From an uncultured Chromatiaceae bacterium (lineage in GTDB: Bacteria > Pseudomonadota > Gammaproteobacteria > Steroidobacterales > GCA-2729495): a stretch of DNA of 37,242 nucleotides. Position 1 is the first letter of the stretch. Every line of letters starts with the position of its first letter. The stretch lies in NCBI GenBank assembly GCA_964569355.1, contig CAZMVP010000004.1:1-37242 (forward strand), in the 5' to 3' direction. The position numbers were made by a program, and so were the translations under genes. This document shows positions 1 to 23,239 of this stretch, one piece after another. The notes below the pieces were generated by a model, which had not been told where the DNA came from, ran no database searches, and saw only the letters and a program-made list of their open reading frames with translations.

Positions 1-940
1 ACAGGCGCAGCCGGACCTGCTGCCTGCCGCCTGCCGGGATCTTCAGCACATGCCAGGCACCAACCTTGGTTCCGGCACGCGAGGGATTCACGGCGGCGGT
101 GGCGCCGCCGACCACGCGATCATGGAAACCATCCTTGAACGGGCCTGCGCCATCCATGCCGAACAGGCGCCGCACGTTGGTCTCGTTCTCGGTGAACAGC
201 AGCGTCGGCGCGTTCTCGACATACAGGCGATAGGTACCGAGCTGATGGTGCTCGATCAGGATCTCGCCTTCATCGACGGCATACATCCGCGGTTTCGGCG
301 TGCCCGGTCGCCAGCTCCAGGTGTTGCGGAAGCAGAGCTGCGGCAGGACGTGCAGGATGGCTTCCTCCGTCGCCAGGTTGACGGCCGAGATCCGCATCAG
401 GATGTCTTCCGGCGCGGCCTGGGCATACTCGACGAACACGTCGAAGTAGCGGTTGTCGTCGAAGACCCCGGTGTCGATGATCTCGAACTCGGGCCCCTTG
501 ATGCCCCGTTCGCGATTGCCCTCGAGCAGGCGGTCGTAGGGGAATTCCGCCTGCGGGTACTTGTAGAGCATCTTGAGGTAGGAGTGCGTCGGCGTCGCAT
601 CCAGGTAGTAATAGAGTTCCTTGACGTCCTCGCCATGGTTGCCCTGGCGGTTGGTCAGGCCGTACAGGCGTTCCTTGAGGATCGGATCCCGGCCGTTCCA
701 CAGGGCGAGCGACAGGCAGAGATGCTGGTTGCGGTCGCAGACGCCGGCGATGCCGTCCTCGCCCCAGCGATAGGCCCGGCTGCGTGCGTGCTCGTGCGGG
801 AAATACTCCCAGGCGGTGCCGTCGGGGCTGTAGTCCTCGCGGACCGTGCCCCACTGCCGCTCGGACACGTAGGGTCCCCACTTCTTCCAGCCTTCGCCCG
901 GGGCGAAGTCCTCGGCAAGGCGCCGGTCCTCGGCGGTCAT
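1..940 (-). CDS. GH63-like (MGH1-like) glucosidase, N-terminal part. The gene continues past the left edge of the window.
   Basis: Not in the ORF track because there is no stop codon in the window. Manual minus-strand translation from the ATG at 940-938 gives MTAEDRRLAEDFAPGEGWKKWGPYVSERQWGTVREDYSPDGTAWEYFPHEHARSRAYRWGEDGIAGVCDRNQHLCLSLALWNGRDPILKERLYGLTNRQGNHGEDVKELYYY..., which is open to position 1. I recognise this N-terminus as typical of bacterial GH63-type glucosidases. The ATG overlaps the upstream gene's stop (ATGA, 937-940). Confidence 0.75.
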   Translation of the reverse strand, partial: MTAEDRRLAEDFAPGEGWKKWGPYVSERQWGTVREDYSPDGTAWEYFPHEHARSRAYRWGEDGIAGVCDRNQHLCLSLALWNGRDPILKERLYGLTNRQGNHGEDVKELYYYLDATPTHSYLKMLYKYPQAEFPYDRLLEGNRERGIKGPEFEIIDTGVFDDNRYFDVFVEYAQAAPEDILMRISAVNLATEEAILHVLPQLCFRNTWSWRPGTPKPRMYAVDEGEILIEHHQLGTYRLYVENAPTLLFTENETNVRRLFGMDGAGPFKDGFHDRVVGGATAAVNPSRAGTKVGAWHVLKIPAGGRQQVRLRL

Positions 941-3009
941 CCCGCGTCCTTCAACCGGAACCAGGCATGCAGGATCGCGGCCACGCTCCAGGCCTGGGCA
1001 AAGCAGCCGCGTGGCCGATGCGGCGCGTCGCCATCGAAGATCTCGCTGATGCTGCCCACGCAGGCTTCGGCCAGGTGGGTGCCGATGCCGGCCAGCAGCG
1101 CCTGGGCCGCAGCACGGTCGCGATGCACCCGGAAGTGCGCCAGCGCGAACGGCCCGAGCAGCCACGGCCAGACCGTGCCCTGGTGGTAGGCGCCGTCGCG
1201 TTCGCGCGGCCCTCCGCCATAGCGGCCGCGATACCGGGAGTTGCCGCGAGCAAGGGTCCTCAAGCCCATCGGCGTCAGAAGCTCGCGTTGGCAGGTAGCC
1301 ACGACCTGCGCGGCCATCGCCGGCTCGAGCAGGTCTTGATCGAGCGACACGGCCAGGATCTGGTTCGGGCGCAGCGCCACGTCGTTGCCTTCCGGTCCGT
1401 CGATGACGTCATGCAGGTAGCCACCGTCGGCGAACCAGAAGCGCTGCCTGAAGGAATCGCGCACGCGGTCGGCCAGGCCCTGGTAGTGGCGGGCCAGCGC
1501 CGGTTCATCCTCGATGGCCGCGAGTTCGGCCATGACCACCAAGGCCCGATGCCAGAGCGCGTTGATCTCCACCGGCTTGCCGATGCGCGGCGTGACCACC
1601 TCGCCGTTGGTCCTGGCATCCATCCACGTGAGCTGCACGCCGGGCTCGCCGGCCCGGAGCAGGCCGTCGGCCGGATCCATGCCGATGCCATGGCGGGTGC
1701 CACGCTGGTGCCAGTCGATCATGTCCACGAGCTTCGGCCAGAGATCACGGACCAGCCCCGCATCGCCGGAGGCGGCATGGCAGGCGGCGATCGCGTCGAA
1801 GTACCACAGGCTGGCATCGGCCGTGTTGTACTCCGGCGGCGACGCATCATCCGGAAAGCGGTTGGGCAACATGCCCTGGCTCAAGTACCCGGCAAAGGTC
1901 CGCAGGACCTCGGCCGCGACCGCGGAGCGGCCCGTGTGCAGCGTCAGGCCGGGCAACGAAATCATCGTGTCGCGACCCCAGTCCCCGAACCACGGATAGC
2001 CGGCGATCACGGTGGACCCGGCGTGCCCGGCCTGGCTCCCTTGCCCGCCTTGGCCCCCCTGCTCACCCTGCGCCGGACCCCGGCGCACGATGAACTGGTC
2101 GGTGGCGAGCACGAGCTGGCGCACCCAGCCCGGTTCGCGCACCACCGGCAGCAGCAATCGCGCGCGGCGATGTCGATCGGCATCCAGCGCGGCAGCCGGC
2201 GGATCCGGGGCCTTGCCGGCCGGCTCGGCGGTGCAGATCAGCGTCGCCGTCTGGCCAGCCTCGAGATCGACCAGGAATTCGCAGGGGCGGAACAGGTCCT
2301 CCTCGCAGTCGAGGCCGCGTTCGGCCTCGAGCCTGTGGTGGAAGTTCCAGTACCAATCGCCCCGCGGCTCGCACCGGCCTTCGGCGCACAGCAGTCGATA
2401 CGCACGCGAACCGGCAGCCGGCGCAACCTGCATGCCATCCGGCACGGCAGTGGTCGCCATGTCACGCTCGCCGCGGCTCTCGGCGTGGAAGTCCCGGAAG
2501 GTGCAGAGCGGCGAGAGCCGCAGGCGCACCGGGCCGCTGGCACTCTCGAGCCGGAAACGGATGTAGGTGGTATCGACGCCCTGCCCCATCCAGATGAGCT
2601 GCGTCAGCCGGGCATCGCCGATGGCAAAGCTCCAGACCGGCATGCCGCCGTTCAACGTGAAGGCCTCGACGTGCCGGCAGCCATCCGGCGTGGCGCTGGC
2701 GCCGCTGTACTCGTGCGCCCACAACGGATGCGGACGCCCCTGGTATTCGACGAAGGCATCGAGGCCCGCCACCAGCACGGTGCGCCTCGCTGGCGGCTGC
2801 AAGGCCGCCACGAGCAGTCCGTGGTAGCGCCGCGTCGCCGCGCCGGACACGGTGCCGGCCGCGTAGCTGCCGGTGCCATTCGTGACCAGCCATTCACGGC
2901 CCGAAGACACCGGGTAGTCGCTGCAGGTGCCGCGATCGAGATCGAGCCGCGGCACGCCATCGCGCCGGCGCGTCACCGTTGTTCCGGACTCGTTCACGGG
3001 GGCAGTCAT
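937..3009 (-). CDS. Glycogen debranching enzyme family protein (GDE N-terminal domain plus amylo-alpha-1,6-glucosidase / GDE_C catalytic domain)
   Basis: 690-aa ORF. Motifs seen: EWLVTNGTGSYAAGTVSGAATRRYHGLL, VIAGYPWFGDWGRDTMISLPGL, GMLPNRFPD, TWMDA, RPNQILAVSL, LLTPMGLRTL, YHQGTVWPWLLGPF, and ISEIFDGDAPH..GC.AQAWSVA. These match the archaeal/bacterial GDE type. The antisense 795-aa ORF is Arg/Pro-rich junk. Confidence 0.85.
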   Translation of the reverse strand: MTAPVNESGTTVTRRRDGVPRLDLDRGTCSDYPVSSGREWLVTNGTGSYAAGTVSGAATRRYHGLLVAALQPPARRTVLVAGLDAFVEYQGRPHPLWAHEYSGASATPDGCRHVEAFTLNGGMPVWSFAIGDARLTQLIWMGQGVDTTYIRFRLESASGPVRLRLSPLCTFRDFHAESRGERDMATTAVPDGMQVAPAAGSRAYRLLCAEGRCEPRGDWYWNFHHRLEAERGLDCEEDLFRPCEFLVDLEAGQTATLICTAEPAGKAPDPPAAALDADRHRRARLLLPVVREPGWVRQLVLATDQFIVRRGPAQGEQGGQGGQGSQAGHAGSTVIAGYPWFGDWGRDTMISLPGLTLHTGRSAVAAEVLRTFAGYLSQGMLPNRFPDDASPPEYNTADASLWYFDAIAACHAASGDAGLVRDLWPKLVDMIDWHQRGTRHGIGMDPADGLLRAGEPGVQLTWMDARTNGEVVTPRIGKPVEINALWHRALVVMAELAAIEDEPALARHYQGLADRVRDSFRQRFWFADGGYLHDVIDGPEGNDVALRPNQILAVSLDQDLLEPAMAAQVVATCQRELLTPMGLRTLARGNSRYRGRYGGGPRERDGAYHQGTVWPWLLGPFALAHFRVHRDRAAAQALLAGIGTHLAEACVGSISEIFDGDAPHRPRGCFAQAWSVAAILHAWFRLKDAG

Positions 3010-3899
3010 CGGGCGGTATCCGGCAGCAGGAATCCCGTGATCACGTCCTGCGAGAGCCAGTCCTGCAACAGGGCGGCGAGGATCGCGCCGCCCGCAGCCA
3101 CGTCGGCATCGCCCAGCAGATGGGTCGATTCACCGAGGCTTTGGCCCTGCTTCACCGCGAGCAACCAGTGATAGTCCCGCTCGGGCAGGCGATGCAGCCG
3201 CACGCCATCGGCCTGCCGCTGCACCAGCAGGTGTTCCGGCTCGCGCGGCGGTGGAATCGCCAACGGTGCCGGCTTCACCGGGGCTGCCACGTCCGCCAGG
3301 TCCACACGAAGGCCTGCCTGATGCGCCTCCCACAGCGGAAACATCGCATGGCTCGTGGCGAGCAGGCGCACCGAGGGATGCAGCTCGACCCCGAGGTTGC
3401 CCTGCTGGTCCGGCGGTACCCCGGCCACCCGCGCGAGATCCGCGCAGGCGCCTGCATCGGCTGCCACCAGGGCCTGCTGGACCAGCCACTCAAGCCGTGC
3501 CACGTCGATCAGGTATTCATCCGGACTGCCGGTGACATGCGCTTCGAGGAAATGCGACAACGCATTGCCGACATGGAACAGGTTGCCGGAGCGGGATGGA
3601 TGCGCCCGCTGGTACGACCATGCCAGCCGGCGGAACTCCGTGGCGCCGATGCAGGACTCGAGCAACGGGAACCCGGCCGCCAGCGCGTTGGCGAAATTCT
3701 CGCGGGCGTTGCTGCGATGAATGCCGATGCGCGATGCCGCGCCTGGCGCCGCATCGCCGCCCGGGCCAGTCAGGATCCTGCCGGTGGTCCCCGCGTCCTC
3801 CCGATGCAGTACCTCGCGGACGAAGCCGAGCTGCAGGCCGGCGAGTCCCGGCTGCCCCGGCCCTGCAGGACAACCGACCTCAGGCAACACGGGCATCAT
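3006..3899 (-). CDS. bufC: DUF2063-family protein, BufC-like partner of the DUF692 enzyme
   Basis: The ORF is open from 3983. I place the start at the ATG at 3899 (MMPVLPEVG...), which overlaps the last 20 nt of the DUF692 gene. The N-terminal L.GLQLGFVREVL segment and the position directly downstream of a DUF692 gene fit the DUF2063 family. The stop overlaps the GDE start (ATGA at 3006-3009). The exact start is uncertain. Confidence 0.7.
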   Translation of the reverse strand: MMPVLPEVGCPAGPGQPGLAGLQLGFVREVLHREDAGTTGRILTGPGGDAAPGAASRIGIHRSNARENFANALAAGFPLLESCIGATEFRRLAWSYQRAHPSRSGNLFHVGNALSHFLEAHVTGSPDEYLIDVARLEWLVQQALVAADAGACADLARVAGVPPDQQGNLGVELHPSVRLLATSHAMFPLWEAHQAGLRVDLADVAAPVKPAPLAIPPPREPEHLLVQRQADGVRLHRLPERDYHWLLAVKQGQSLGESTHLLGDADVAAGGAILAALLQDWLSQDVITGFLLPDTAR

Positions 3900-4761
3900 C
3901 CAGCCTCGTCGATGCACGGGCAAGGCAGCGGTCGGCCCGGGCGGCTTCGTCCAGCAATACCGGCAGGGTGGGCAGGTCGGCATCCCATTCGATCAGCGTT
4001 GGTCGTGGCCCGAGGTGGTCGAGCGCCAGTTCATACAACGTCCAGACCACATCGGCCACCGGTGCGCTGTGGGTGTCGATCAACAGGCCGTCGGCAACCG
4101 TGTGGCCGGCAAGGTGGATCTCCCCGACCAGGTCCGGCGGAATCGCCGCGATGTAGTCGCGGGCCGCGAAGCCATGGTTCACCGCGTTGACATGCACGTT
4201 GTTGACGTCGAGCAGGATGCCGGCGCCAGTACGGCGGGCAAGCTCGACCAGGAACTCCCACTCGGTCATCTCCGCGCCGGCAAACTGCAGGTAGCTGGAG
4301 ACATTCTCGACGAGGATCCGGCGCTGCAGGCATTCCTGCACGGCCGTCACGCGCGAAACCAGGTGATCGAGCGCCTCGCGCGTGTGCGGCATCGGCAGCA
4401 GGTCGTTCAGGAACACGCCGCCAGCCGAGCTCCAGCTCACGTGCTCCGACAAAAGCGCCGGCTCCACGCGCCGCACGAGGCGCCGGAGCCGCTGCAGGTG
4501 GTCGGCATCGAGCGGATCGATGCTGCCGAGCGACAGGCCGACGCCATGCAGGCTCACGTCATGATCCCGCCGGACCGCCTCCAGCACCTCGAGCTGGCGG
4601 CCGCCATCGGCAAAGAAATTCTCGCTGTGGACCTCGACCCACGGGATCGGCGGGCGACTCTCGAGGAAGGCCCGATGGTGCGGGCTTCGCAGTCCTATCC
4701 CGGCCCGGGCCGGGACAGGACGCGAACCCGCTGCCGGCACCGTTGTCGATGCCGGCGTCAT
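3880..4761 (-). CDS. bufB: DUF692 / MNIO-family (MbnB, TglH, BufB-like) multinuclear non-heme iron oxidase
   Basis: Motifs seen: GIGLRSPH, VEVHSENFF, LHGVGLSLGS, LSEHVSWS, LVENVSSYL, LLDVNNVHVNAVNHG, EIHLAGH, LIDTHS, and TLIEWD. Together these are the TIM-barrel metal-ligand pattern of DUF692. The likely ATG at 4761 lies 1 nt after the precursor gene's stop. The track's 4770 start is a GTG that would overlap the precursor. Confidence 0.85.
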   Translation of the reverse strand: MTPASTTVPAAGSRPVPARAGIGLRSPHHRAFLESRPPIPWVEVHSENFFADGGRQLEVLEAVRRDHDVSLHGVGLSLGSIDPLDADHLQRLRRLVRRVEPALLSEHVSWSSAGGVFLNDLLPMPHTREALDHLVSRVTAVQECLQRRILVENVSSYLQFAGAEMTEWEFLVELARRTGAGILLDVNNVHVNAVNHGFAARDYIAAIPPDLVGEIHLAGHTVADGLLIDTHSAPVADVVWTLYELALDHLGPRPTLIEWDADLPTLPVLLDEAARADRCLARASTRLDDARVA

Positions 4762-4762
4762 C

Positions 4763-5053
4763 TCAGGCACCCTTGTTGTCGGCAGCTGGCTTGCCGGCCG
4801 TCAGCGAGCCGCCCAGTTCGGCGCACTGCCCCTTGGCCACGTACTTCCATTCGCCGGGATCCTTGTCGGTCTTCGCCTGGCCCTGGCAGGAATGGCCGTT
4901 GCCGGCGCAGCTGTTCTCGCCGGCGCTGGCGACGCCGTAGCACTTCTCCTTGGCGGCGCCATCATCGGCTCGTGCGGCCGTGCTCAGCGTGGCGGCGCCG
5001 AATGCCAGCAGGCTGCTGATGGCCGTGGATACCATGATCGAGCTGGTCTTCAT
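4763..5053 (-). CDS. bufA: DUF2282-family secreted Cys-containing peptide, a BufA1-type bufferin precursor (96 aa)
   Basis: I trimmed the start to the ATG at 5053. An AAGGAG sits 10 nt upstream. The Sec signal peptide is MKTSSIMVSTAISSLLAFGAATLSTAARA, with cleavage before DD. The core is EKCYGVASAGENSCAGNGHSCQGQAKTDKDPGEWKYVAKGQCAELGG, with four Cys (residues 38, 49, 56, 77) in the DUF2282 spacing. Confidence 0.85.
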   Translation of the reverse strand: MKTSSIMVSTAISSLLAFGAATLSTAARADDGAAKEKCYGVASAGENSCAGNGHSCQGQAKTDKDPGEWKYVAKGQCAELGGSLTAGKPAADNKGA

Positions 5054-5247
5054 GTGTGGTCGTCTCCTTGAGGCTTGGGCCACAGGTGGGTGTCGTCGGG
5101 GGTACCTGTGCAACCGGTCCCGACCACGGGACATTACACAATGTGCCGGTATTTGGCAGCCCGGTGTGCCGGCATGGTGCCCGACAGGGGGTAATCCGCG
5201 GATCGCGGCCGGGATTCCGGCCCGGGTCCGGCCGGAGGACTCCGGCT

Positions 5248-5275
5248 AAAGGACGTTGGCCAAAGGACGTTGGCC
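5248..5275. repeat. Perfect 2 x 14-bp tandem direct repeat (AAAGGACGTTGGCC)
   Basis: Read directly: 5248-5261 equals 5262-5275. It lies between the small ORF's stop (5290) and the bufA start (5053). A GCCGGAG-GA-CTCCGGC hairpin sits next to it at 5231-5246. Confidence 0.9.
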
Positions 5276-5289
5276 GGCGTGATGGGCGA

Positions 5290-5550
5290 TCAGACGACTT
5301 CGACGTAGACGACGGGAATGTTCTTCCGTTGTGCGTAGGCGGCGGCAAACCCGGTCGCGAACTCCTCGTCCATCGGGCAGTTGCTGACCAGTGTCCGGAA
5401 GTTCCAGGTCCGGGTGCGGACCGCGCCGCCAAACACGCGTTCGATAGTCGCGAAGGTGGTCGGCGAACCCTCGCGGCGCTGGCAATACACCCGAAGGAAG
5501 TCACCCCCGGCGCAGGTGGCATCGTGATCGTGGACTACCTGGACTTTCAT
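5290..5550 (-). CDS. Small hypothetical cytoplasmic protein (86 aa)
   Basis: MKVQVVHDHDATCAGGDFLRVYCQRREGSPTTFATIERVFGG...VVYVEVV. A GGGGAG sits 7 nt upstream of the ATG at 5550. The composition looks coding. I do not recognise a family. Confidence 0.5.
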   Translation of the reverse strand: MKVQVVHDHDATCAGGDFLRVYCQRREGSPTTFATIERVFGGAVRTRTWNFRTLVSNCPMDEEFATGFAAAYAQRKNIPVVYVEVV

Positions 5551-5646
5551 CGGCTGCTCCCCGCCCCGCATGGCGCCTCACAAAATCGGGCGAGCCCGAT
5601 GCGGGCTGCCCTGACTGGACAGGAGCAAGGGTCATGCCAGCGTGGA

Positions 5647-6294
5647 TCAGGTCACGCTATCCGGGCCGATCGGCCCCCTTATGTGAAGGTCGGGTGCCGT
5701 GGATTGTCCATTGTTGACGGCCACCGCCCCGACCGGGACCTCGCGCGTCGGAATCCGGACCACCTCGCCGGCCATGCCGTGCACCGGCTGGCCGATGGCG
5801 CAATCACGGCAGGAACCCAGGCCCAGCCGCCGGGCCTCGGCCGGCGTGAGCTTCGGCGTGGCCGGCCGCAGCACCTGCAGGGCACCACGGTAATCGGCCA
5901 GGTAGAGCGCGAGGCCCGTGGACTCCACCAGCGCCCGGTCGGTGGGCGAGAAATAGCGGCGTTCCGGGGAGGCCGCCCCATGGGTATGCCACAGCGCCAC
6001 CACCTCGAAGCCATCCGGGATCGAAAGCCGGACCTGGATCCGGTCCGCCCCCGCTTGACCGGGGGCAACGGAATAGTGGAACCCGGTCCCGCGGCGCAGG
6101 ACCGCGCCCAGGTACTCGCGGTCCTCCCGGATCGACCGTGCATTGACCGCGCTGGTGGCCGCGACCACAGCCTCGAGTTCTGTGGCAAACCGCTCGGCCG
6201 ACGGCCCGGCCGGGGCAGCTGCCACGCTGCCGGGACCTGCTGCGAGCCCCGCAGCCAGAACCAGCCCGAGCCAGATTCCTGAGGTCGTCTCCAT
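5647..6294 (-). CDS. Secreted protein, DUF4329-like
   Basis: Signal peptide METTSGIWLGLVLAAGLAAGPGSVAAAPA. The core contains EYLGAVLRR..GFHYS and ALWHTHG....RYFSPTD, which resembles the DUF4329 domain. The assignment is by memory only. Confidence 0.55.
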   Translation of the reverse strand: METTSGIWLGLVLAAGLAAGPGSVAAAPAGPSAERFATELEAVVAATSAVNARSIREDREYLGAVLRRGTGFHYSVAPGQAGADRIQVRLSIPDGFEVVALWHTHGAASPERRYFSPTDRALVESTGLALYLADYRGALQVLRPATPKLTPAEARRLGLGSCRDCAIGQPVHGMAGEVVRIPTREVPVGAVAVNNGQSTAPDLHIRGPIGPDSVT

Positions 6295-6502
6295 GTCGCC
6301 GCTCCCATCGATGAACTGATGGGCGCAGGAGTCTCGACATGGACCAGCGCTGAATCCCGAGGCTTCCCGCCGGGATCACGATGCTTTTGGAATTGATGCT
6401 CCCGGAACCTTCGGAAAAGCTTCGGGCGCCATGGATTCAGTCACTTGCATGGCACCCCCACTGGCCGGACGACACCGCCGGCGGTACAGTTGCCGCCACC
6501 GC

Positions 6503-7621
6503 ATGACCCCGAACCCACCCCATCCGGCCGCCACCGGCAACAACCTGCAGGATGGGTTTCGCGTGGGCAGCTGGCAGGTCCGCCCGCTCCAGGGCGTGAT
6601 CGAACAGGCCAGCCATCTGGTCCATGTCGAGCCCAAGGTCATGGACGTCCTGCTGTGCCTGGCCCGGCACCCGGGGCAGGTCGTGTCCCGCGAGACGCTG
6701 CTGGACGAGGTCTGGGCCGGCGTCGTGGTGACCGACGAGGTGGTGACCCGATGCATCTCGGAATTGCGGACCGTGCTGCGCGACACCGGGCGCGACCGGC
6801 AGTTCATCCGGACCATCCCGAAGCGCGGCTACAGCCTGCTGGTGCCAGTCGAACCGCTCGAATCCGGGTCGGTCATGGCCGACGAGCCGGATCCCGGGCT
6901 TCCCGCCACCGAGGCAGCGCCGGATGCCGCGGATTCCGGCCCGCCCCCGGCGCTCGCCGTGCTGTCGGCGACGGCCAGGGGCACGATGATGGCTGGCCGG
7001 CAGGCACTGGCGACCGGCCGCAGCCTGTTGCGCTCCACGCTGCTTGGCATCGGCGTGTTCGTGGTCAGCATCGTCGGGCTGGGCGTGCTCCTCGCGCTGC
7101 TGAGCAGTGACGACGGGGTAGACGTCAAGGTCATGCCGAACGACAACACCGGGCAATCCGTCTCCACGCCGGCACCGCGACCTGCCCCGACGCCCGGTTC
7201 ATTCCATTCACTGGCGGTCCTGCCGCTCGTTAACCTGGGCGGCAGTGGTGAAGACACGGGTTATTTCAGCGAAGGATTGACCGAAGACATCCGCAATGCC
7301 CTGATCAACGGCACGGCGCTGCAGATTGCGGCCCGTACCCGCACTGCCGATCTCCAGGACGAGTCGATGGACGGGCGCGAGATTGCGCGGGAATTGAAAG
7401 TCGACGCCTTGCTGGAAGGCACCGTGCGCACCGCCAACGACCAGCTGCGCGTCACCATCCAGCTCATCGACGGGCGCACCGGCTATCCGGTCTGGGCGTC
7501 GAGCTTCGAACGACCGATGGCGGAAAAGGCGACCCTGCAATCCGAGGTCCCGAAGGCCATCGTCCGCCAGTTCCCATCCACGGCCACCGGCCGCAAGGAG
7601 CCGTACCGGAAGCCCGGCTGA
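6503..7621 (+). CDS. Membrane-anchored CadC/ToxR-like transcriptional regulator: OmpR/PhoB-type winged-helix domain, one TM segment, and a TolB-N-like periplasmic domain
   Basis: The winged helix reads VEPKVMDVLLCLARHPGQVVSRETLLDEVWAGVVVTDEVVTRCISELRTVL...FIRTIPKRGYSLL. The TM segment is LLGIGVFVVSIVGLGVLLALL. The C-terminus reads SLAVLPLVNLGG..YFSEGLTEDI...LEGTVR...LRVTIQLIDGRTGYPVWA. I chose the start at 6503 because codons 6431-6500 have poor GC3; 6431 remains possible. Confidence 0.8.
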   Translation: MTPNPPHPAATGNNLQDGFRVGSWQVRPLQGVIEQASHLVHVEPKVMDVLLCLARHPGQVVSRETLLDEVWAGVVVTDEVVTRCISELRTVLRDTGRDRQFIRTIPKRGYSLLVPVEPLESGSVMADEPDPGLPATEAAPDAADSGPPPALAVLSATARGTMMAGRQALATGRSLLRSTLLGIGVFVVSIVGLGVLLALLSSDDGVDVKVMPNDNTGQSVSTPAPRPAPTPGSFHSLAVLPLVNLGGSGEDTGYFSEGLTEDIRNALINGTALQIAARTRTADLQDESMDGREIARELKVDALLEGTVRTANDQLRVTIQLIDGRTGYPVWASSFERPMAEKATLQSEVPKAIVRQFPSTATGRKEPYRKPG

Positions 7622-12232: not shown

Positions 12233-14137
<1,905 letters not shown>

Positions 14138-16707: not shown

Positions 16708-17124
16708 ATGACCGCCGACGAGATCTGCAGCGAGGCAGACATCACCGCACTCGTCCACGATTTTTATGCCCGGATCCGGGACGATGCGAAGCTCGGCCCG
16801 ATCTTCGACCGGCACATCGCCGACTGGCCGCATCATCTCGCGAAGATGGTCGACTTCTGGTCATCGACCCTGCGCGGCACGCGCCGCTACCACGGCATGC
16901 CCATGCCGGCCCACGTGGCGCTGCCGGGACTTGACCAGGACCTGTTCCGGCAGTGGCTGTCACTCTTCCATGAAACCACGGCAGCCCACCCGAACCAGGC
17001 CATGGCCGAACGGGCCGACCTGCTCGCCGAGCGCATTGCGCAGAGCCTCTGGTACGGTTACGACATGCACCACAACCAGCTGACGCAAAGCTGGCCGCTT
17101 GAAGCACAAACAGGAGTTGGCTGA
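16708..17124 (+). CDS. Group III truncated hemoglobin (2-on-2 globin)
   Basis: The 138-aa protein reads ITALVHDFYARIRDDAKLGPIF...WPHHLAKMVDFWSS.L.G...Y.G.P...H. The size and motifs fit the trHb III (Ctb-like) family. Confidence 0.8.
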   Translation: MTADEICSEADITALVHDFYARIRDDAKLGPIFDRHIADWPHHLAKMVDFWSSTLRGTRRYHGMPMPAHVALPGLDQDLFRQWLSLFHETTAAHPNQAMAERADLLAERIAQSLWYGYDMHHNQLTQSWPLEAQTGVG

Positions 17125-18770
17125 TGGATAGCGCGGTATTGAGCCTGCTGGGAGCCTTCCTGCTGTCCGTCATCGGACTGTTCGTCTTCATCTGGTCGAT
17201 GCGCAAGGGATTGCTCTCGGAGAATGCCGGAGCGGCATCCGTCATCTTCGCCGAAGGCGAGATCGGCCGGGTCGATGACCCGGCCCTGGGCGAAGCCGCG
17301 CAGGAGAATTTCCAGGCGGCCGTGGCACCGGAGACCACGGAACCACCAGCCAACGAAGCCGAGCTGGTCGACCGGATCGAGGCGGATCGCTCCACGGCAT
17401 TCCCGGTCTTCATGTTCATCGCCTTTGCCTGTTTCTGGCTGCTGGTCGGCTCGGCAGCGGGACTCATTGCCTCGATCAAGCTCCACGCGCCGGACTGGCT
17501 CGTCAACGACGCCTGGCTGACCTTCGGCCGGATCCGCACCGAGCACCTCAACGCCGTGATCTACGGCTGGTCGTCCAACGGCTGCCTGGCCGTGATCATG
17601 TGGCTGCTGCCGCGGCTCATGCGGACGCGGCTCGTCGGCGCGATCTGGGTCATGCTGGGCGGCACCTTCCTCAACGCCGGCATCGCAGCGGGCATCGGCG
17701 CCATCGCCTCGGGCTGGACCGACGGCATGGAGTTCCTGGAGATCCCCTGGCAGATCGGCGTCTTCATCTTCGCCGGCTTCGGCCTGATCGTGCTGCCACT
17801 GCTGCTGACGGTCTTCCGGCGCAACGTGGAACACATCTATGTCAGCGCCTGGTACATGGTGGCGGGCCTCTTGTGGATCTCGCTCTTGTTCGTCGTGGCC
17901 AAGCTCCCGGGCGTGCACACCGGCGTGCAGCAGGCAACGACGAACTGGTGGTATGGCCACAATGCGCTGGGGCTGTGGTTCACGCCGGTCAGCGTGGGCG
18001 CCATCTACTACTTCCTGCCGAAGATCATCGGACGGCCGATCGTGTCCTACAACGTGTCGCTGCTCGGCTTCTGGTCGCTCGCGTTCTTCTACGGCCAGGT
18101 CGGCGGCCACCACCTGATCGGCGGACCCATTCCCGGCTGGCTCATCACCCTGTCGATCGTGCAGAGCGTGATGATGGTCATCCCGGTGGTTGCGTTCGCG
18201 ATCAACCAGGGTGGCACGATCTGGGGCCACATCCGCTTCGTGCGCTATTCCCCGACGCTGCGCTTCATGGTGGCCGGCGGCCTGATGTACTGCCTGTCCT
18301 CGGTGCAGGGGTCGATGGAAGCCCTGCGCAGCGTCAACGCGGTCACCCACTTCACGCACTACACCGTGGCCCATGCCCACCTCGGCATGTACGCCTTCGT
18401 CGCGATGGTGCTGTTCGGCGCCATCTACTTCATGATGCCGCGCGTGCTGGACTGGGAATGGCCCTATCCGAAGCTGATCTCGCTGCATTTCTGGCTGGTC
18501 ACGATCGGCATCACGATCTACGTCGTGTCGCTGACGATCGGTGGCTGGCTGCAGGGCAAGGCCATGCTCGACCCCGACCAGCCGTTCATCGAATCGGTGC
18601 TGTTGACCCTGCCGTACCTCAAGGCACGCAGCATCGGTGGCACGATCATGACGCTCGGCCACCTCGTGTTCGTCGGTCATTTCTTTGCGATGGCGCTGCG
18701 CTTCGGGCCGCAACGCACCGGCGCCGCGCTGTTCTGGCAGCCGGCCGCGGAGGGCAATCATGGAAAGTGA
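17124..18770 (+). CDS. ccoN: cbb3-type (C-family) heme-copper oxidase subunit I with a CcoS/FixS-like N-terminal extension
   Basis: WWYGHNALGLWF, the FFYGQVGGHHL motif (Tyr five residues before HH) and THFTHYTVAHAHLG match the CcoN metal-ligand pattern. The first ~45 aa (LLSVIGLFVFIWSMRKGLLSENAGAASVIF) resemble CcoS. The ATG overlaps the globin stop (TGATG), and AGGAG lies 7 nt upstream. Confidence 0.85.
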   Translation: MDSAVLSLLGAFLLSVIGLFVFIWSMRKGLLSENAGAASVIFAEGEIGRVDDPALGEAAQENFQAAVAPETTEPPANEAELVDRIEADRSTAFPVFMFIAFACFWLLVGSAAGLIASIKLHAPDWLVNDAWLTFGRIRTEHLNAVIYGWSSNGCLAVIMWLLPRLMRTRLVGAIWVMLGGTFLNAGIAAGIGAIASGWTDGMEFLEIPWQIGVFIFAGFGLIVLPLLLTVFRRNVEHIYVSAWYMVAGLLWISLLFVVAKLPGVHTGVQQATTNWWYGHNALGLWFTPVSVGAIYYFLPKIIGRPIVSYNVSLLGFWSLAFFYGQVGGHHLIGGPIPGWLITLSIVQSVMMVIPVVAFAINQGGTIWGHIRFVRYSPTLRFMVAGGLMYCLSSVQGSMEALRSVNAVTHFTHYTVAHAHLGMYAFVAMVLFGAIYFMMPRVLDWEWPYPKLISLHFWLVTIGITIYVVSLTIGGWLQGKAMLDPDQPFIESVLLTLPYLKARSIGGTIMTLGHLVFVGHFFAMALRFGPQRTGAALFWQPAAEGNHGK

Positions 18771-19419
18771 AGTCAAGCTGATCACCGGCGCACTCGTCAC
18801 GCTCGGCGTGGCCACCGCGGCGCTGGTCGTCATGCCCTACATCCAGGTCCGGGACGTCAAGCCACCCGAGGGCCTGAAGCCCTACACGAGCGCGGAGCTG
18901 CGCGGGCGGGAGGTCTACATCTCCGAGGGCTGCGTGTACTGCCACAGCCAGCAGCCACGCGACCGGTCCATGGGTCCGGATGCCAGCCGCGGCTGGGGCC
19001 GGCCATCGGTGCCGGGCGACTACTACTATGACCGCCCGCACCAGCTCGGCAGCATGCGTACCGGGCCTGACCTCTTCAATATCGGCGCGCGCCAGCCCAG
19101 CAAGGACTGGCAGCTCGGCCACCTCTACCAGCCCCGGGCCTATTCGCCCGGATCGACGATGCCGGCCTATCCCTACCTGTTCACCATCGAGGATGAGCTC
19201 GCCGATGGCGACGAGGCGGTGAACCTGCCACCGGGGTACGCGCCGGAAGGCAAGTACGTCGTGGCCACGCCGAGGGCGCTCGACCTCGTGCGCTACCTCC
19301 AGGGGATGGACCATACCTATCCGATCCTGCCCGCGGCGCCCGTGGCAGGGCCCGCGGCAGCGGATGGGTCCGAAGCGGCAACCGGACCCGAAGCCGCAAC
19401 CGCAGAAGGGACGCTGTGA
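18760..19419 (+). CDS. ccoO: cbb3-type oxidase subunit II (monoheme CcoO/FixO)
   Basis: N-terminal TM segment, then YISEGCVYCHSQQPR and GSMRTGPDLFNIG...W...HLY.PR...PGS.MPAYPYLF. I trimmed the start to the ATG at 18760, with GGAGGG upstream. The gene overlaps ccoN by 11 nt. Confidence 0.85.
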   Translation: MESEVKLITGALVTLGVATAALVVMPYIQVRDVKPPEGLKPYTSAELRGREVYISEGCVYCHSQQPRDRSMGPDASRGWGRPSVPGDYYYDRPHQLGSMRTGPDLFNIGARQPSKDWQLGHLYQPRAYSPGSTMPAYPYLFTIEDELADGDEAVNLPPGYAPEGKYVVATPRALDLVRYLQGMDHTYPILPAAPVAGPAAADGSEAATGPEAATAEGTL

Positions 19420-20045
19420 TGCTCGATGAACGCACCAAGCCCACCAAGGCGCAGCAGCGCGAGCATGCCGAGCCCTCCGAAGGCCTGAAGCCGGTACCGG
19501 TGGTCGTGTTGCTCGCCACGCTGGCACTCGTGCTGTTCGGTGCCGGCTACATCTTCGTTTCCGAGCCCTTTGGCCGGGCTGACCTGGGCGACCAGCGCAC
19601 GCTGGCCGACCTCAGGGCGAAGCCGGCAGCGGCAGCCGGCACCGCCGCAGCCAGCGTGGACGGGGCGCAGGTCTACACGGCCAACTGCGTCGCCTGCCAC
19701 CAGGCAAGCGGCAAGGGCCTGCCAGGCGTCTTCCCGAACCTCGACGGCTCCGACTGGGTTGCCAGGGATCCCCGTGTCATCATCAATATCCTGCTCCACG
19801 GCATCACGGGCCAGATGACGGTCAATGGCGCGGTGTACAACGGCGCGATGCCGGCCTTCGGCCACCTAGGCGACGCGGAGCTGGCCGCCGTGGCGAGCCA
19901 TGTACGGTCGGCGTGGTCCAACAAACTGCCGCCGGTAGCGCCGGAAACCGTCGCCGAGGTCCGCAAGGACCAGTCCCGGACCACGCCGTTTGCCGGTGAA
20001 GCCGAGCTCGAGGCTATGCTGAAGTCGCTGGCACCGGCTCCTTGA
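19419..20045 (+). CDS. Membrane-anchored monoheme c-type cytochrome (stands where the diheme CcoP would be)
   Basis: TM segment VVVLLATLALVLFGAGYIFV, a single CVACH heme site, and GAMPAFG as the probable Met ligand. The ATG overlaps the ccoO stop (GTGATG). Confidence 0.75.
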   Translation: MLDERTKPTKAQQREHAEPSEGLKPVPVVVLLATLALVLFGAGYIFVSEPFGRADLGDQRTLADLRAKPAAAAGTAAASVDGAQVYTANCVACHQASGKGLPGVFPNLDGSDWVARDPRVIINILLHGITGQMTVNGAVYNGAMPAFGHLGDAELAAVASHVRSAWSNKLPPVAPETVAEVRKDQSRTTPFAGEAELEAMLKSLAPAP

Positions 20046-20090
20046 GCAGGGCATGAAGGCCGGCGCGACATCCGGCAGCGAGGGCTCGCG

Positions 20091-20555
20091 ATGCGCCTGA
20101 CGATGATGACGGACTACGCGCTGCGCCTGCTCATGTACGTGGGCCAGCGACCTGACCAGTTGTGCACCATCGCGGAAGTCGCCGGGGCCCACGGCATTTC
20201 CGAAGCACACCTGATGAAGATCACGCACCAGCTGGCCCTGCACGGCTGGCTGGAAACCATCCGCGGCCGCGGCGGCGGCATGCGTCTTGCGACCACGCCG
20301 GACAAGGTCAACATTGGTGCCGTGGTGCGTCGCATGGAACCGGATTTCCAGCTCGTGGAATGCCTGGCCCGGGACACCTGCGCGCTGGCGGGCCACTGCA
20401 ATCTCACCCCCATCGTCGAAGAGGCACTCGAACTCTTCATGGCGCACCTGGACCGGCACACGCTGGCCGACCTGCTGCCCGGCATCCCGATCGACCTGCG
20501 CGCGCAACGAAAGGATCCGACGTCGGGCGGCGGCAACTCGACGCGCAGTCGCTGA
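20091..20555 (+). CDS. nsrR: Rrf2-family transcriptional regulator, NsrR-like
   Basis: MRLTMMTDYALRLLMYVG....TIAEVA...GISEAHLMKI...L...G (wHTH), followed by three Cys spaced as C-x7-C-x5-C (ECLARDTCALAGHC). This is the Fe-S ligand pattern of NsrR-type Rrf2 proteins. The symbol is tentative. Confidence 0.75.
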   Translation: MRLTMMTDYALRLLMYVGQRPDQLCTIAEVAGAHGISEAHLMKITHQLALHGWLETIRGRGGGMRLATTPDKVNIGAVVRRMEPDFQLVECLARDTCALAGHCNLTPIVEEALELFMAHLDRHTLADLLPGIPIDLRAQRKDPTSGGGNSTRSR

Positions 20556-21187
20556 TGGGCCGGACCCTGGTCGCCTGCGCCGCATTCCTGGTCCTCGCGA
20601 TCGGCGCGGCACGGTGGTTGACGCTCGATTTCAACATCTGGACTGCCGAAGGCGCGCGCCGCTTCGAGGTGGCGAGCGCACCGGTTGCCGCACCCGAGGT
20701 CACGCTGGACGGACCCGACCTCCGCGACATGCGGCTGCCCGAGGTCCTGTCCACGAACCGGGCGGTGACGATCGTCGATTTCATCTACACCAGTTGCCAG
20801 ACCGTCTGCCAGGTGCTGGGTACCGGCTTCCAGCAACTGCAGGCGCGCATCGGCAATGATCCACGGCTGAAGCAGCGCGTCCGCCTGCTGTCGATCAGCT
20901 TCGATCCGGCCCGCGATACCCCGGACGTGCTGCGCGACCATGCCGACCACCTCGGCGCCGACCCGGCCATCTGGACCTTCGCGCGGGTCGCCGACCAGCG
21001 GCAGCTGGCCACGCTGCTCGACCGCTTCAACGTGGTCGTGATTCCGGATGGCCAGGGTGGCTATGCGCACAACGCCGCCTTGCTCGTTGTCGACCGGGAC
21101 GCGCGGCTGGTGCGGATCTTCGACTACTCGGAACTCGACACGGCGCTGGCCTATGCCGTGCGACTGGCGAATCGGCAGGTCTCCTGA
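20555..21187 (+). CDS. SCO1/SenC family copper chaperone / thiol-disulfide protein
   Basis: N-terminal TM anchor, FIYTSCQTVCQ (the CxxxC motif), LLSISFDPARDTP, and YAHNAALLVVD (the conserved His). The ATG overlaps the nsrR stop (TGATG). Confidence 0.8.
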   Translation: MGRTLVACAAFLVLAIGAARWLTLDFNIWTAEGARRFEVASAPVAAPEVTLDGPDLRDMRLPEVLSTNRAVTIVDFIYTSCQTVCQVLGTGFQQLQARIGNDPRLKQRVRLLSISFDPARDTPDVLRDHADHLGADPAIWTFARVADQRQLATLLDRFNVVVIPDGQGGYAHNAALLVVDRDARLVRIFDYSELDTALAYAVRLANRQVS

Positions 21188-21792
21188 TGACGAGCAGCCG
21201 GATGCATCGATTCGCCGCCCTCACCGCGTTGGCCGCACTGGCCGCGCTCCTGGTGCTGGTGTTGCCGCCGGTGCGGCTGGCCATGGAAGCCAGCATGAGC
21301 CGACACATGCTGTTGCAGTTCCCGGCGCTCCTCGCCATCGGCTGGTTGCTGGCCGGCACGCTGCCGGTCCGGTGGCGCACCGCGCTCGGCCCATGGAACC
21401 ACCTCGGCATCAGCGGGCTCATGGCCGCTGCCCTGATCCTCGGCATCGGCATGATTCCCCGGGTGCTGGATCTGGCGCTGGTGGACTGGCGGATCGAGGC
21501 CATCAAGTTCGTCGCCCTGCTGTCCTGCGGCGCCGCAATCCGGCTGTCATGGTCGGCCGGCGGCCTGGTGGTGCAGGGCTTCTTCCTCGGCAACCTGTTG
21601 TGGATGACCGCGGTCGTCGGTCTCCTGTACCAGGACTCGCCCGAGCGGCTGTGCAATGCCTACCGGCTGGATGACCAGCAGTGGCTGGGAATGTGGCTCG
21701 TGGGCATCTCGGTCGCCATCGGCACGACCTGGCTGGTCCGCGCGTTCCGAGGACGGCAAGTGGGGCATGAGCCGGACACATTGACGCCCTGA
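21187..21792 (+). CDS. Polytopic membrane protein, possibly a CtaG-like oxidase assembly factor
   Basis: About five hydrophobic segments. SRHMLLQFPALLAIGWLLAG is reminiscent of caa3-CtaG-type proteins. The ATG overlaps the SCO stop (TGATG). The functional call is weak. Confidence 0.5.
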   Translation: MTSSRMHRFAALTALAALAALLVLVLPPVRLAMEASMSRHMLLQFPALLAIGWLLAGTLPVRWRTALGPWNHLGISGLMAAALILGIGMIPRVLDLALVDWRIEAIKFVALLSCGAAIRLSWSAGGLVVQGFFLGNLLWMTAVVGLLYQDSPERLCNAYRLDDQQWLGMWLVGISVAIGTTWLVRAFRGRQVGHEPDTLTP

Positions 21793-21993
21793 TGTCGGCG
21801 AGCTGATCCGCACCATCGGCGCGCGCTCGATCGGTCTGCCGAGGCACTACCGCCGGCCGGCTCGATCCTTCGCCTTATGTTCAGTCGGACTCGGATGACC
21901 AATGCTGAGGCAATATCTGCCATCAGGCTGCTCGAACCGTCGGCCGTGCCTGGCAGGACGACGGCCCCGCTCATCCGAAACAGGAAGTGAAAA

Positions 21994-23121
21994 ATGACAA
22001 GAATCATCCTGATTGCACTACTGCTCCCCGCGTCATTCAGTGCTGCCGCCGCCAGCTTTACACCATTGGGAGACCTGGCCGGCGGCACCTTTGCCAGCGG
22101 GGCCACGGATATCTCCGGTAACGGCACGATCGTCGTCGGCAACAGCAGCACGGCCGCCGGCACCCGCGCGTTCATCTGGACTGCCAGTACCGGCATGGTG
22201 GAGATGGCGGCGGCCAACGGCATTACCCCAACCGTGGCGAATGCCATATCAGGCGATGGCACGGTGATCGTCGGCAGCTCCGGCTACTCCCTGAGTTGGC
22301 GTTGGTCCAGCGCGAGCGGCTTCCAGCCATTGGTGCCCGTGGCCGGCGAGACGGGGACCGCAACGAGTTCCGTATCCTACGACGGCAGTGTCGTGGGTGG
22401 CTCAAGCATTAATCCCTTCCCGCGCGCTGTCATCTGGACGGCACCGACGACCCCGGATCCATTGGGCATACCCATTGAAAGCAGCGTCCACGGCGTGTCA
22501 GCCGACGGCCTGGTGGCGGTGGGCGGTGGGCAACGAGACAACGTCGCATTCCGCTGGTCTGAAACGGATGGCATCACCTATCTGGGGGACCTGCCCGGCG
22601 GCAACACTTCCGCTGTCGCCATGGCCACCTCCGGCGATGGCAGCATCGTCGTGGGCAGATCCAGCTCGGCCGCCGGTGGCGAGGCATTTCGATGGACTGC
22701 CGATACCGGCATCCTTGGCCTGGGCGATCTTGCAGGCGGCATTTTCGGCAGCTCGGTCACCGATATCACGGCATCCGGCGACGTGATTGTCGGCAGTGGA
22801 TCGGACAGCAGGGGACAACAGGCTGTCCTGTGGACCACTGCCGGCGTGGAGGCCATCTTCGACCTGCTGGTAGCCCAGGGTGTGATGCTGCCCGAGGGCT
22901 GGAGACTTACCAGTGCCAAGGCCATTTCTGACGACGGTCTTGCCATTGTCGGTACCGGCGTCAATCCCGATGGCTTTGTTGAAGGGTGGATAGCGCAGCT
23001 GGACCCCTACATCGTGCCGTTGCCGGCATCCATCTGGCTGTTCATCTCCTCACTCTCCGCCTTGGCGGGGCTTCGCCTTCGCAGCATCGGCCGCGCGACA
23101 GCCACTGCCAGCCACCGGTGA
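21994..23121 (+). CDS. HAF-repeat extracellular protein with a VPLPA-CTERM (PEP-CTERM variant) sorting signal
   Basis: Signal peptide MTRIILIALLLPASFSAAAA. Repeated G.A.AISGDG..VVG....G...AF.W motifs are present (ATDISGNGTIVVG, NAISGDGTVIVG, HGVSADGLVAVG, ATSGDGSIVVG, TDITASGDVIVG, AISDDGLAIVG). The C-terminus (23014-23118) is VPLPASIWLFISSLSALAGLRLRS. AGGAAG lies upstream of the ATG. Confidence 0.8.
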   Translation: MTRIILIALLLPASFSAAAASFTPLGDLAGGTFASGATDISGNGTIVVGNSSTAAGTRAFIWTASTGMVEMAAANGITPTVANAISGDGTVIVGSSGYSLSWRWSSASGFQPLVPVAGETGTATSSVSYDGSVVGGSSINPFPRAVIWTAPTTPDPLGIPIESSVHGVSADGLVAVGGGQRDNVAFRWSETDGITYLGDLPGGNTSAVAMATSGDGSIVVGRSSSAAGGEAFRWTADTGILGLGDLAGGIFGSSVTDITASGDVIVGSGSDSRGQQAVLWTTAGVEAIFDLLVAQGVMLPEGWRLTSAKAISDDGLAIVGTGVNPDGFVEGWIAQLDPYIVPLPASIWLFISSLSALAGLRLRSIGRATATASHR

Positions 23122-23129
23122 CCACGCCG

Positions 23130-23207
23130 GTGGTGCCGGGGCACCTTCTTGGTAAGTGGTGCCGGGGCACCTTCTTGGTAAGTGGTGCCGGGGCACTTTC
23201 TTGGTAA
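23130..23207. repeat. 3 x 26-bp tandem repeat, GTGGTGCCGGGGCACCTTCTTGGTAA. Each unit carries the inverted repeat GGTGC-CGGG-GCACC.
   Basis: Read directly: 23130-23155 and 23156-23181 are identical, and 23182-23207 has one mismatch (C to T at 23197). The period is 26, not a multiple of 3. It lies 9 nt after the HAF gene's stop and 33 nt before the next ATG. Confidence 0.9.
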
Positions 23208-23239
23208 CCTGTCGCCGACGACAGCAGCGGTGACCTGCC

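Follow-up and report, generated by a model that had tools for sequence, protein, structure and literature searches.

Bufferins were described in 2024. A survey published in 2025 catalogued thousands of Buf1 clusters together with variants of their gene order (PMC12452194), and a 2026 study put the number of precursor peptides in the bufferin class at 21,424; more than 20,000 clusters of the family are known. The known systems closest to the cluster reported here are the buf1 operon of Caulobacter vibrioides (bufA1B1C1D1, CCNA_03363-03366) and the gig operons of Cupriavidus metallidurans, Legionella, and Bordetella. The Caulobacter report (PMC11626156) states that BufB1 and BufC1 are necessary and sufficient for the formation of two thiooxazoles in vitro, that Cys I and Cys IV of Buf1 form a disulfide, with Cys II/III being modified, and that the dissociation constant of Buf1 for Cu2+ is ~6e-15, a value quoted here without units. 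We analyzed a 37,242-nt window (the whole stretch of contig CAZMVP010000004.1 to which all coordinates refer) from an uncultured gammaproteobacterium. A cluster on its minus strand at 3006–5053, bufABC, shares with the buf1 and gig operons a DUF2282 precursor with a Sec signal and four conserved cysteines, a multinuclear non-heme iron oxidase (MNIO) gene immediately downstream, a DUF2063 gene overlapping the MNIO gene, the gene order, and the predicted precursor fold. Unlike those operons, it is found in an uncultured gammaproteobacterial host, has no DoxX gene (bufD) and no adjacent sigF/nrsF, and is directly followed by glycoside-hydrolase genes. All three genes are intact and closely coupled, purifying selection acts on them, and they have all the sequence and fold hallmarks of the family. 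We consider it very likely that bufABC works as a self-sufficient bufferin (captophorin) gene cluster of the Buf1 type. It is an ordinary, intact member of the described family, and its sole unusual trait is the loss of the optional DoxX gene.

The three genes are consecutive and nearly unspaced, as an earlier model-generated reading of the sequence (the original prediction) had described them. They are bufA (4763–5053), coding for a 96-amino-acid (aa) Buf1/DUF2282 bufferin precursor; bufB (3880–4761), for a 293-aa MNIO (DUF692) bufferin maturase; and bufC (3006–3896), for a 296-aa DUF2063 partner protein of PME type 1. A Shine-Dalgarno sequence, AAGGAG, can be read on the minus strand at 5064–5069, 10 nt from the bufA ATG, and is kept as (A/G)GGAG in upstream alignments of relatives. 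The bufB ATG at 4761 lies 1 nt after the bufA stop, and an alternative GTG at 4770 would give a protein of 296 aa; residue numbers for BufB below refer to the 293-aa version. The bufC frame, which ends at 3006, overlaps bufB by the predicted 20 nt if it starts at the ATG at 3899 and by 17 nt if it starts at the ATG at 3896. Gene callers on independent metagenome contigs with an identical BufA gave proteins of 96, 293, and 296 aa (ATG 4761 and ATG 3896). Paralogues of bufA, bufB, and bufC were sought within the window and none was found. GC content is uniformly high across the window, at 61%–71% per kilobase.

BufA matches Pfam PF10048 (DUF2282, now named BufA1) with 70.1 bits against a cut-off of 22.4 (E 1.5e-19), covering profile positions 1–52 of 53. 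A database search returned 702 homologues at E <= 0.001, and the best 120 of these were aligned; PF10048 is present in all 120. The closest homologues among those listed are from uncultured Gammaproteobacteria. Identity to named BufA1 proteins of cultured bacteria is ~50%–55%, with 55% for Chromobacterium, whose homologues carry the NCBI name "BufA1 family periplasmic bufferin-type metallophore." The predicted cysteine pattern (KCYGV-x7-C-x6-C-x20-C) is exact. Cys I–IV are residues 38, 49, 56, and 77; each is 99%–100% conserved in the alignment, as are K37, G40, N47, H54, G58, and W69. Exactly four cysteines occur in 117 of the 120 sequences, and the EKCYG, AGxNxC, GHSC, and EWKYV motifs are 91%–100% conserved. 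Signal-like features of the N-terminus are Lys2, a hydrophobic core spanning approximately residues 5–20 (Kyte-Doolittle 1.5–1.95), and A-R-A before Asp30; no lipobox cysteine was seen in it on inspection. The proposed Sec signal with cleavage after ARA agrees with this pattern, which is kept in the aligned homologues, the site having been judged by inspection and hydropathy. The predicted signal peptide spans residues 1–29 (4967–5053), so that the predicted periplasmic product is 67 aa long (DDGAAKEKC...NKGA). An AlphaFold model of BufA has a strand at 35–39 (Cys I), a loop holding Cys II and Cys III, which is the less confident part of the model, a second strand at 69–73, and a short helix at 77–80 (Cys IV). 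The published model of C. vibrioides BufA1 has a two-stranded sheet and a disulfide joining the first strand to a short helix (PMC11626156), and the modeled topology of BufA matches it. A sequence search of the PDB with BufA gave nothing useful.

BufB scores 357 bits against Pfam PF05114 (MbnB_TglH_ChrH; cut-off 25) and 377.9 bits against the NCBIfam equivalog NF050167, "MNIO family bufferin maturase" (MNIO_BufB; cut-off 310), with E values of 7e-107 and 2e-113 for the two models. It falls below the cut-off on the other models, with bits scored and required of 238.9/360 for HvfB, 85/400 for ApyH, 47.4/325 for MbnB (TIGR04159), and 31/600 for ChrH. All DUF692 motifs listed in the original prediction are present, namely HSENFF (45–50), SEH (105–107), ENVS (152–155), DVNNVHVNAVNHG (185–197), HLAGH (216–220), DTH (229–231), and EWD (258–260). 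The list missed His72 in an LHG motif, which aligns with the first MbnB-type iron ligand and lies 35 residues before H107. This spacing matches that of the first histidine ligand of MbnB. The ligand equivalents H72 and E258 were assigned from spacing and from the alignment with 3bww. A phmmer search of the PDB with BufB found the DUF692 protein 3bww (E 6e-37), the "DUF692 family protein" chain of 8hci/8hi7/8hi8, and MbnB. The SEH, EN, DVNN, H-x-AG, and DTH elements align with SDH, EN, DVSN, H, and DTH of MbnB. Ten predicted metal-site or second-sphere residues (H45, H72, H107, E152, D185, N188, H216, D229, H231, and E258) are all present here, and conservation across 80 species is 97% or higher for each. 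The BufB clade keeps His45 of HSENFF, but the 3bww homologue has Ala-Pro at this place. The alignments with MbnB, 3bww, and the 80 species contain no loss-of-function substitution at a metal ligand, as the original prediction would have it.

The third protein, proposed earlier to be a DUF2063 protein, matches Pfam PF09836 (DUF2063/HvfC_N) with 55.5 bits against a cut-off of 27.2 (E 7e-15), so that the three families named from the sequence are all recovered above curated cut-offs. BufC aligns over its full length with the BufC proteins of relatives, with two short insertions only. A sequence search of the PDB with BufC gave nothing useful, and fold comparison was therefore needed. The AlphaFold model, built with 66 sequences, has a mean predicted local distance difference test score (pLDDT) of 90 and a predicted template modeling score of 0.87. 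Its architecture is a helical N-terminal domain followed by a winged-helix C-terminal domain that resembles a RiPP recognition element (RRE). The top Foldseek matches in the PDB are chain A of 8hi7 from the TglHI holoenzyme (E 1.2e-6), which we take to be TglI, and NGO1945 (3dee, E 1.6e-4). The C-terminal module superposes on the TbiB1 RRE 5v1v with a root-mean-square deviation of 2.0 over 71 columns (TMt 0.64, weak E of 0.36), and it also resembles the RRE of a lasso-peptide B1 protein (~2 Å, ~70 columns, weak E). MbnC (7dz9_C) is a weak structural match to BufC (E 0.63). This DUF2063 plus RRE-like architecture is the one that the Caulobacter report gives for BufC1 (PMC11626156).

These family scores place the cluster, on sequence grounds, in the Buf1 type and outside Buf2, oxazolin/Hvf, and methanobactin. 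C. vibrioides buf2 (bufA2B2C2; BUF_6/12Cys) shares with bufABC three genes without DoxX, a Sec-exported cysteine peptide, and the MNIO/DUF2063 pair. Unlike the buf2 precursors, which have 6 or 12 cysteines, BufA has four cysteines and a DUF2282 match, and its score on the BufA2 model NF050166 is 29.6 bits against a cut-off of 60. Oxazolin/HvfABC, fontiphorin, and gonophorin (captophorins with EGKCG repeats) have in common with bufABC an MNIO, a PME-type-1 (DUF2063) partner, and a Sec signal, and by analogy they would also share the conversion of Cys to 5-thiooxazole and an association with copper. The 96-aa BufA contains no EGKCG repeats, and the HvfB and HvfC scores are under cut-off. The TglHI pair of the 3-thiaglutamate pathway and NGO1945 share the partner-protein fold with BufC at an identity of only 12%–16%, and TglH, unlike BufB, removes the beta-carbon of Cys from a cytoplasmic peptide that depends on a leader. 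In methanobactin biosynthesis (MbnABC), a copper ligand likewise arises when a DUF692 iron enzyme works on Cys in a ribosomal peptide, and the iron-ligand positions are shared; unlike MbnABC, the present cluster has a DUF2063 partner instead of MbnC, a Sec signal instead of a leader peptide, and a predicted heterocycle of a different kind. That the modification might instead be an oxazolone-thioamide pair, as in methanobactin, was considered because the two products have equal mass and because the earliest proposal for the product of the related HvfB was such a pair (PMC11252979). We regard this as extremely unlikely. Nuclear magnetic resonance assigned 5-thiooxazole in Buf1 (PMC11626156), a selective-labeling preprint favors 5-thiooxazole in bufferins (10.64898/2025.12.15.693703), and alkylation-assisted heteronuclear multiple-bond correlation revised oxazolin to 5-thiooxazole, a result generalized to the MNIO-PME1 class (PMC13097082). 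The score of the present enzyme, moreover, is 378 bits with the BufB model and only 47 with that of MbnB.

By analogy with the characterized Buf1 system of C. vibrioides (PMC11626156), and in line with the extension of 5-thiooxazole chemistry to MNIO/PME1 clusters (PMC13097082), we infer how the bufABC product would be modified, exported, and expressed and which metal it would bind. In the cytoplasm, a BufB-BufC complex, with BufB as the multinuclear non-heme iron oxidase and BufC contributing its RRE-like domain, would recognize the BufA precursor. With O2, this complex would carry out a four-electron oxidation of each central cysteine (Cys49 and Cys56) to 5-thiooxazole. BufA would then be exported by Sec and cut by signal peptidase after Ala29 (ARA|DD). 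In the periplasm, a Cys38-Cys77 disulfide would staple the small beta-sheet/helix fold, and the ~67-residue product would chelate Cu(I)/Cu(II) through its thiooxazoles, so that copper stress is buffered.

A first scan of a genome collection with BufC confirmed no relatives, because this protein diverges too much to be seeded by exact peptides; the related loci (numbered with the prefix L) are the 80 found by scanning with BufB. The order bufA-bufB-bufC is kept in essentially all of them. The arrangement proposed originally, DUF2282/DUF692/DUF2063 with an optional DoxX, holds here for its three genes and not for DoxX. No Pfam match to DoxX was found among 35 candidate open reading frames (ORFs) tested in the window, and tblastn searches of the window with 14 DoxX proteins from relatives gave scattered matches only (best E 0.004). 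The queries were taken from related-locus ORFs with a Pfam DoxX match (32 of 59 candidate fourth genes, that of L016 among them). DoxX follows bufC in 46 of the 65 related loci with enough downstream sequence and is absent from 19 (~29%). A cluster without DoxX is thus a common minority variant, and DoxX is frequent and not obligatory. In the closest clade, four loci (L016, L017, L022, and L027) have the order bufC-DoxX-GDE, GDE being a glycogen-debranching-type enzyme gene, and in the window, L014/L009, and L026, bufC abuts GDE through an ATGA or GTGA overlap. Since sister genomes have bufC-DoxX-GDE where the window has a bufC/GDE overlap, bufD was deleted in the window lineage. The deletion probably happened more than once in the clade, because BufB of L026 (70%) is less similar to the window protein than BufB of the DoxX-bearing L016 and L017 (75%). 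The sequence at the bufC/GDE junction (3006–3009, ATGA) begins with ATGACTG, and these 7 nt are identical to the start of bufD in L022, which suggests a near-precise bufD deletion, possibly recurrent in the clade. As proof of a DoxX remnant at the junction, this 7-nt likeness is too short. The Caulobacter report describes that a bufD deletion strain still made modified Buf1 and kept its copper protection (PMC11626156), so the absence of DoxX does not exclude membership in Buf1. By the same analogy, the loss of bufD should not matter for modification or copper protection in the present host.

The nearest metagenome-assembled genome (MAG), L014/L009, is an "uncultured Chromatiaceae" (GCA_964384525.1) with 89% identity in BufA and 80% in BufB. 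Ratios of nonsynonymous to synonymous substitution (dN/dS) between the window and L014, which is also without bufD, are 0.09 for bufA, 0.17 for bufB, and 0.34 for bufC. The bufD-less cluster has therefore been under purifying selection since the split from L014 and is not decaying; pseudogenization was rejected in view of dN/dS and of the conserved residues. In L001, bufABC has 99.4% nucleotide identity and the BufA protein is identical, and the allele of the window recurs in 11 contigs from at least eight sequencing runs.

Upstream regions of the relatives were aligned to look at regulation. Of 66 regions upstream of bufA in related loci, 29 carry a motif consisting of TGTAAGG(T/A)T, ~17 nt, and C(C/G)AA, ~70–115 nt before the start; in L016–L036 its distance from bufA is ~80–100 nt. 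Its counterpart in the window is TGTAATG on the minus strand at 5132–5138, 85 nt upstream of the bufA ATG, which may be the -35 element of a promoter for an extracytoplasmic function (ECF) sigma factor. In Caulobacter, buf1 and buf2 are expressed from a sigma-F promoter that experiments defined as GTAACC-N16-CGAA (PMC3511200). An exact match to it was found in one locus only (L074), and the motif of the relatives resembles it only approximately, with a spacing of ~18–19 nt from GTAAGG vs 16 nt in Caulobacter. In both the window and L014, TGTAATG is preceded by GCTGCCAAA (region 5132–5160). A likeness of TTGTGTAATG to a CopR/CusR-type box was considered and is not claimed, and a direct repeat, AT(G/A)CCGGCACA, found twice with 23-nt spacing at 5142–5175, is not conserved in L014 and may be due to chance. 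An Rfam scan of the whole window gave no match.

Several results weigh against a functional Buf1 cluster. The ECF-type motif is half kept, its -10-like C(C/G)AA element being conserved neither here nor in L014, and this makes the expression of the cluster and its inducer uncertain. Scans of 700–6500 detected neither a sigma-70-like promoter nor an intrinsic terminator. None of the window ORFs tested has a Sigma70_r2/r4 or NrsF domain, the SigF/NrsF pair being an optional Buf1 trait, and none of those tested in the 37-kb window is a copper-handling gene (CopA, CueO, Cus). The AlphaFold confidence for BufA is only moderate (pLDDT 64.6), and BufC is far under the cut-off of the NCBIfam HvfC equivalog (44.1 vs 142 bits), a model that covers a different subfamily. 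An ECF sigma factor encoded elsewhere or the neighboring CadC-like regulator may drive bufABC.

Two alternatives were considered. If the loss of bufD was accompanied by promoter erosion, the cluster might be a decaying or silent remnant whose genes are no longer expressed or useful, and the deleted bufD, the -10-like element that is conserved in neither the window nor L014, and the lack of a called promoter would fit such a history. We would put very little faith in it, given three full-length ORFs in which every conserved residue is intact, dN/dS values of 0.09–0.34 since the split from a relative already without bufD, a strong Shine-Dalgarno sequence, an allele that recurs in 11 contigs, and a bufD that is dispensable in experiments. 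The second alternative keeps the chemistry and changes the target, which would be cadmium, chromium, gold, mercury, or oxidative or chlorine stress, or metal delivery in place of sequestration. Au, Cd, Cr, and Cu induce the homologous gig and sigma-F-dependent operons (PMC11626156; PMC3511200), and the existence of fusions between MerC and bufferins suggests that other metals are also involved (PMC12452194). The window itself adds to this the absence of a copper gene among the ORFs tested and of the usual regulator pair, together with a divergent CadC/ToxR-type regulator nearby at 6431–7621. The sequence of the window gives no pointer to another metal, however, and the only functional data on Buf1-type peptides are copper binding and copper protection (PMC11626156). 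A different target is a minority possibility that we consider unlikely, and a copper-binding Buf1 bufferin is the preferred reading of bufABC.

Directly downstream on the same strand, the GDE gene (937–3009) codes for a 690-aa glycogen-debranching-type enzyme with GDE_N and GDE_C domains (GDE_C 398, GDE_N 237, and TIGR01561 377 bits). Its ATG overlaps the bufC stop by 4 nt (ATGA). It is followed by an MGH1/GH63-like hydrolase gene, also on the minus strand, which lies before 940 and runs off the window edge. Because no terminator-like site was found, read-through from bufABC into GDE is likely, and GDE is probably co-transcribed with bufC; it is not a known bufferin component. These junctions raise the question of whether bufABC and the two glycoside-hydrolase genes (GDE-type and GH63/MGH1-like) form one functional operon that ties the bufferin to the breakdown of glycogen or compatible solutes. 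There are 4-nt overlaps between bufC and GDE and between GDE and the next gene (the latter seen in L002), no terminator was found in the scan of 700–6500, and GDE stands directly after bufC or bufD in L014, L016, L017, L022, L026, and L027. The linkage is confined, however, to one small clade, other close relatives (L018, L020, L023, and L024) having different neighbors, and a survey of ~14,000 MNIO enzymes found extra conserved genes in extremely low proportions (PMC12452194). The bufD deletion simply explains the tight junction, and no biochemical rationale joins the functions. A shared operon is in our view quite improbable, and the GDE linkage, limited to part of one clade, is treated as a by-product of the bufD deletion from an otherwise ordinary Buf1 cluster. 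A glgB-like branching enzyme gene lies farther away in the window at 12233–14137.

On the other side of the cluster, three further genes precede bufA. The nearest is an 86-aa ORF on the minus strand (5290–5550) with three cysteines, no signal peptide, and no Pfam or NCBIfam match. It is kept upstream of bufA in seven relatives (L014, L019, L020, L022, L023, L024, and L027). In L030, L033, and L038, a weaker relative of this ORF is located close to bufABC; the association of the ORF with bufA may be one of synteny only. Just after this ORF, at 5239–5280, a tandem duplication of GGCCAACGTCCTTT is followed by the GC-rich hairpins CCGGAGTCCTCCGG and CCGGACCCGGGCCGG. Lying between the 86-aa ORF and bufA, these elements may form a terminator without a T tract or a structure with a regulatory role. 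Next comes a gene for a 215-aa DUF4329 protein (5647–6294, minus strand) with a weak Prok-JAB match and a hydrophobic, possibly signal-peptide-like N-terminus. Beyond it, divergently oriented on the plus strand at 6431–7621, is the gene of a CadC/ToxR-like regulator located in the membrane, which has a Trans_reg_C domain at its N-terminus and a transmembrane segment. The DUF4329 protein and this regulator are common only to the window and L014 among the relatives. The regulator has 372–396 aa in the window, L001, and L003 and 835 aa, with C-terminal TPR repeats, in L009/L014, so that its periplasmic TPR part seems to have been lost in the population of the window.

A joint rewiring of the locus could be drawn from these features. 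In it, a precise excision of bufD would have coupled bufC translationally (ATGA) to the GDE and GH63-like genes, the ancestral ECF-type promoter would have partly eroded, and a CadC/ToxR-like regulator and a secreted DUF4329 protein would have been acquired upstream. If these changes were functional, a periplasm-sensing ToxR-like regulator would control bufferin expression, and genes for the catabolism of glycogen or compatible solutes would be expressed along with the bufferin. A regulatory and physiological tie of this kind is not known to have been described for bufferins. We find this scenario improbable.

Two other regions of the window were recorded. Genes at 16708–20555 code for a bacterial-type globin, a COX1-family subunit, a FixO-like mono-heme subunit, and a cytochrome c, followed by an Rrf2-family regulator; judged by its domains, the region looks like a cbb3/NOR-type heme-copper oxidase set with a possible NO- (nitric oxide) or redox-responsive regulator. 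The ~2.7 kb at 20556–23233 holds candidate ORFs with weaker codon-position GC bias and no Pfam match.

The identification of bufABC as a periplasmic bufferin-type metallophore cluster thus stands at the level of the family, and the novelty first attached to it was overrated, the family being already described and annotated automatically. Pfam and NCBIfam now name all three proteins, and the fitting annotation is BufA1-family bufferin precursor, MNIO bufferin maturase BufB, and BufC partner protein. The cluster adds an uncultured-gammaproteobacterial example to a family of thousands and opens no new question. What it does provide is natural evidence on the optional fourth gene. Within one clade, bufD was apparently lost repeatedly, and after the loss of DoxX bufABC has been kept under purifying selection, in agreement with the Caulobacter knockout.

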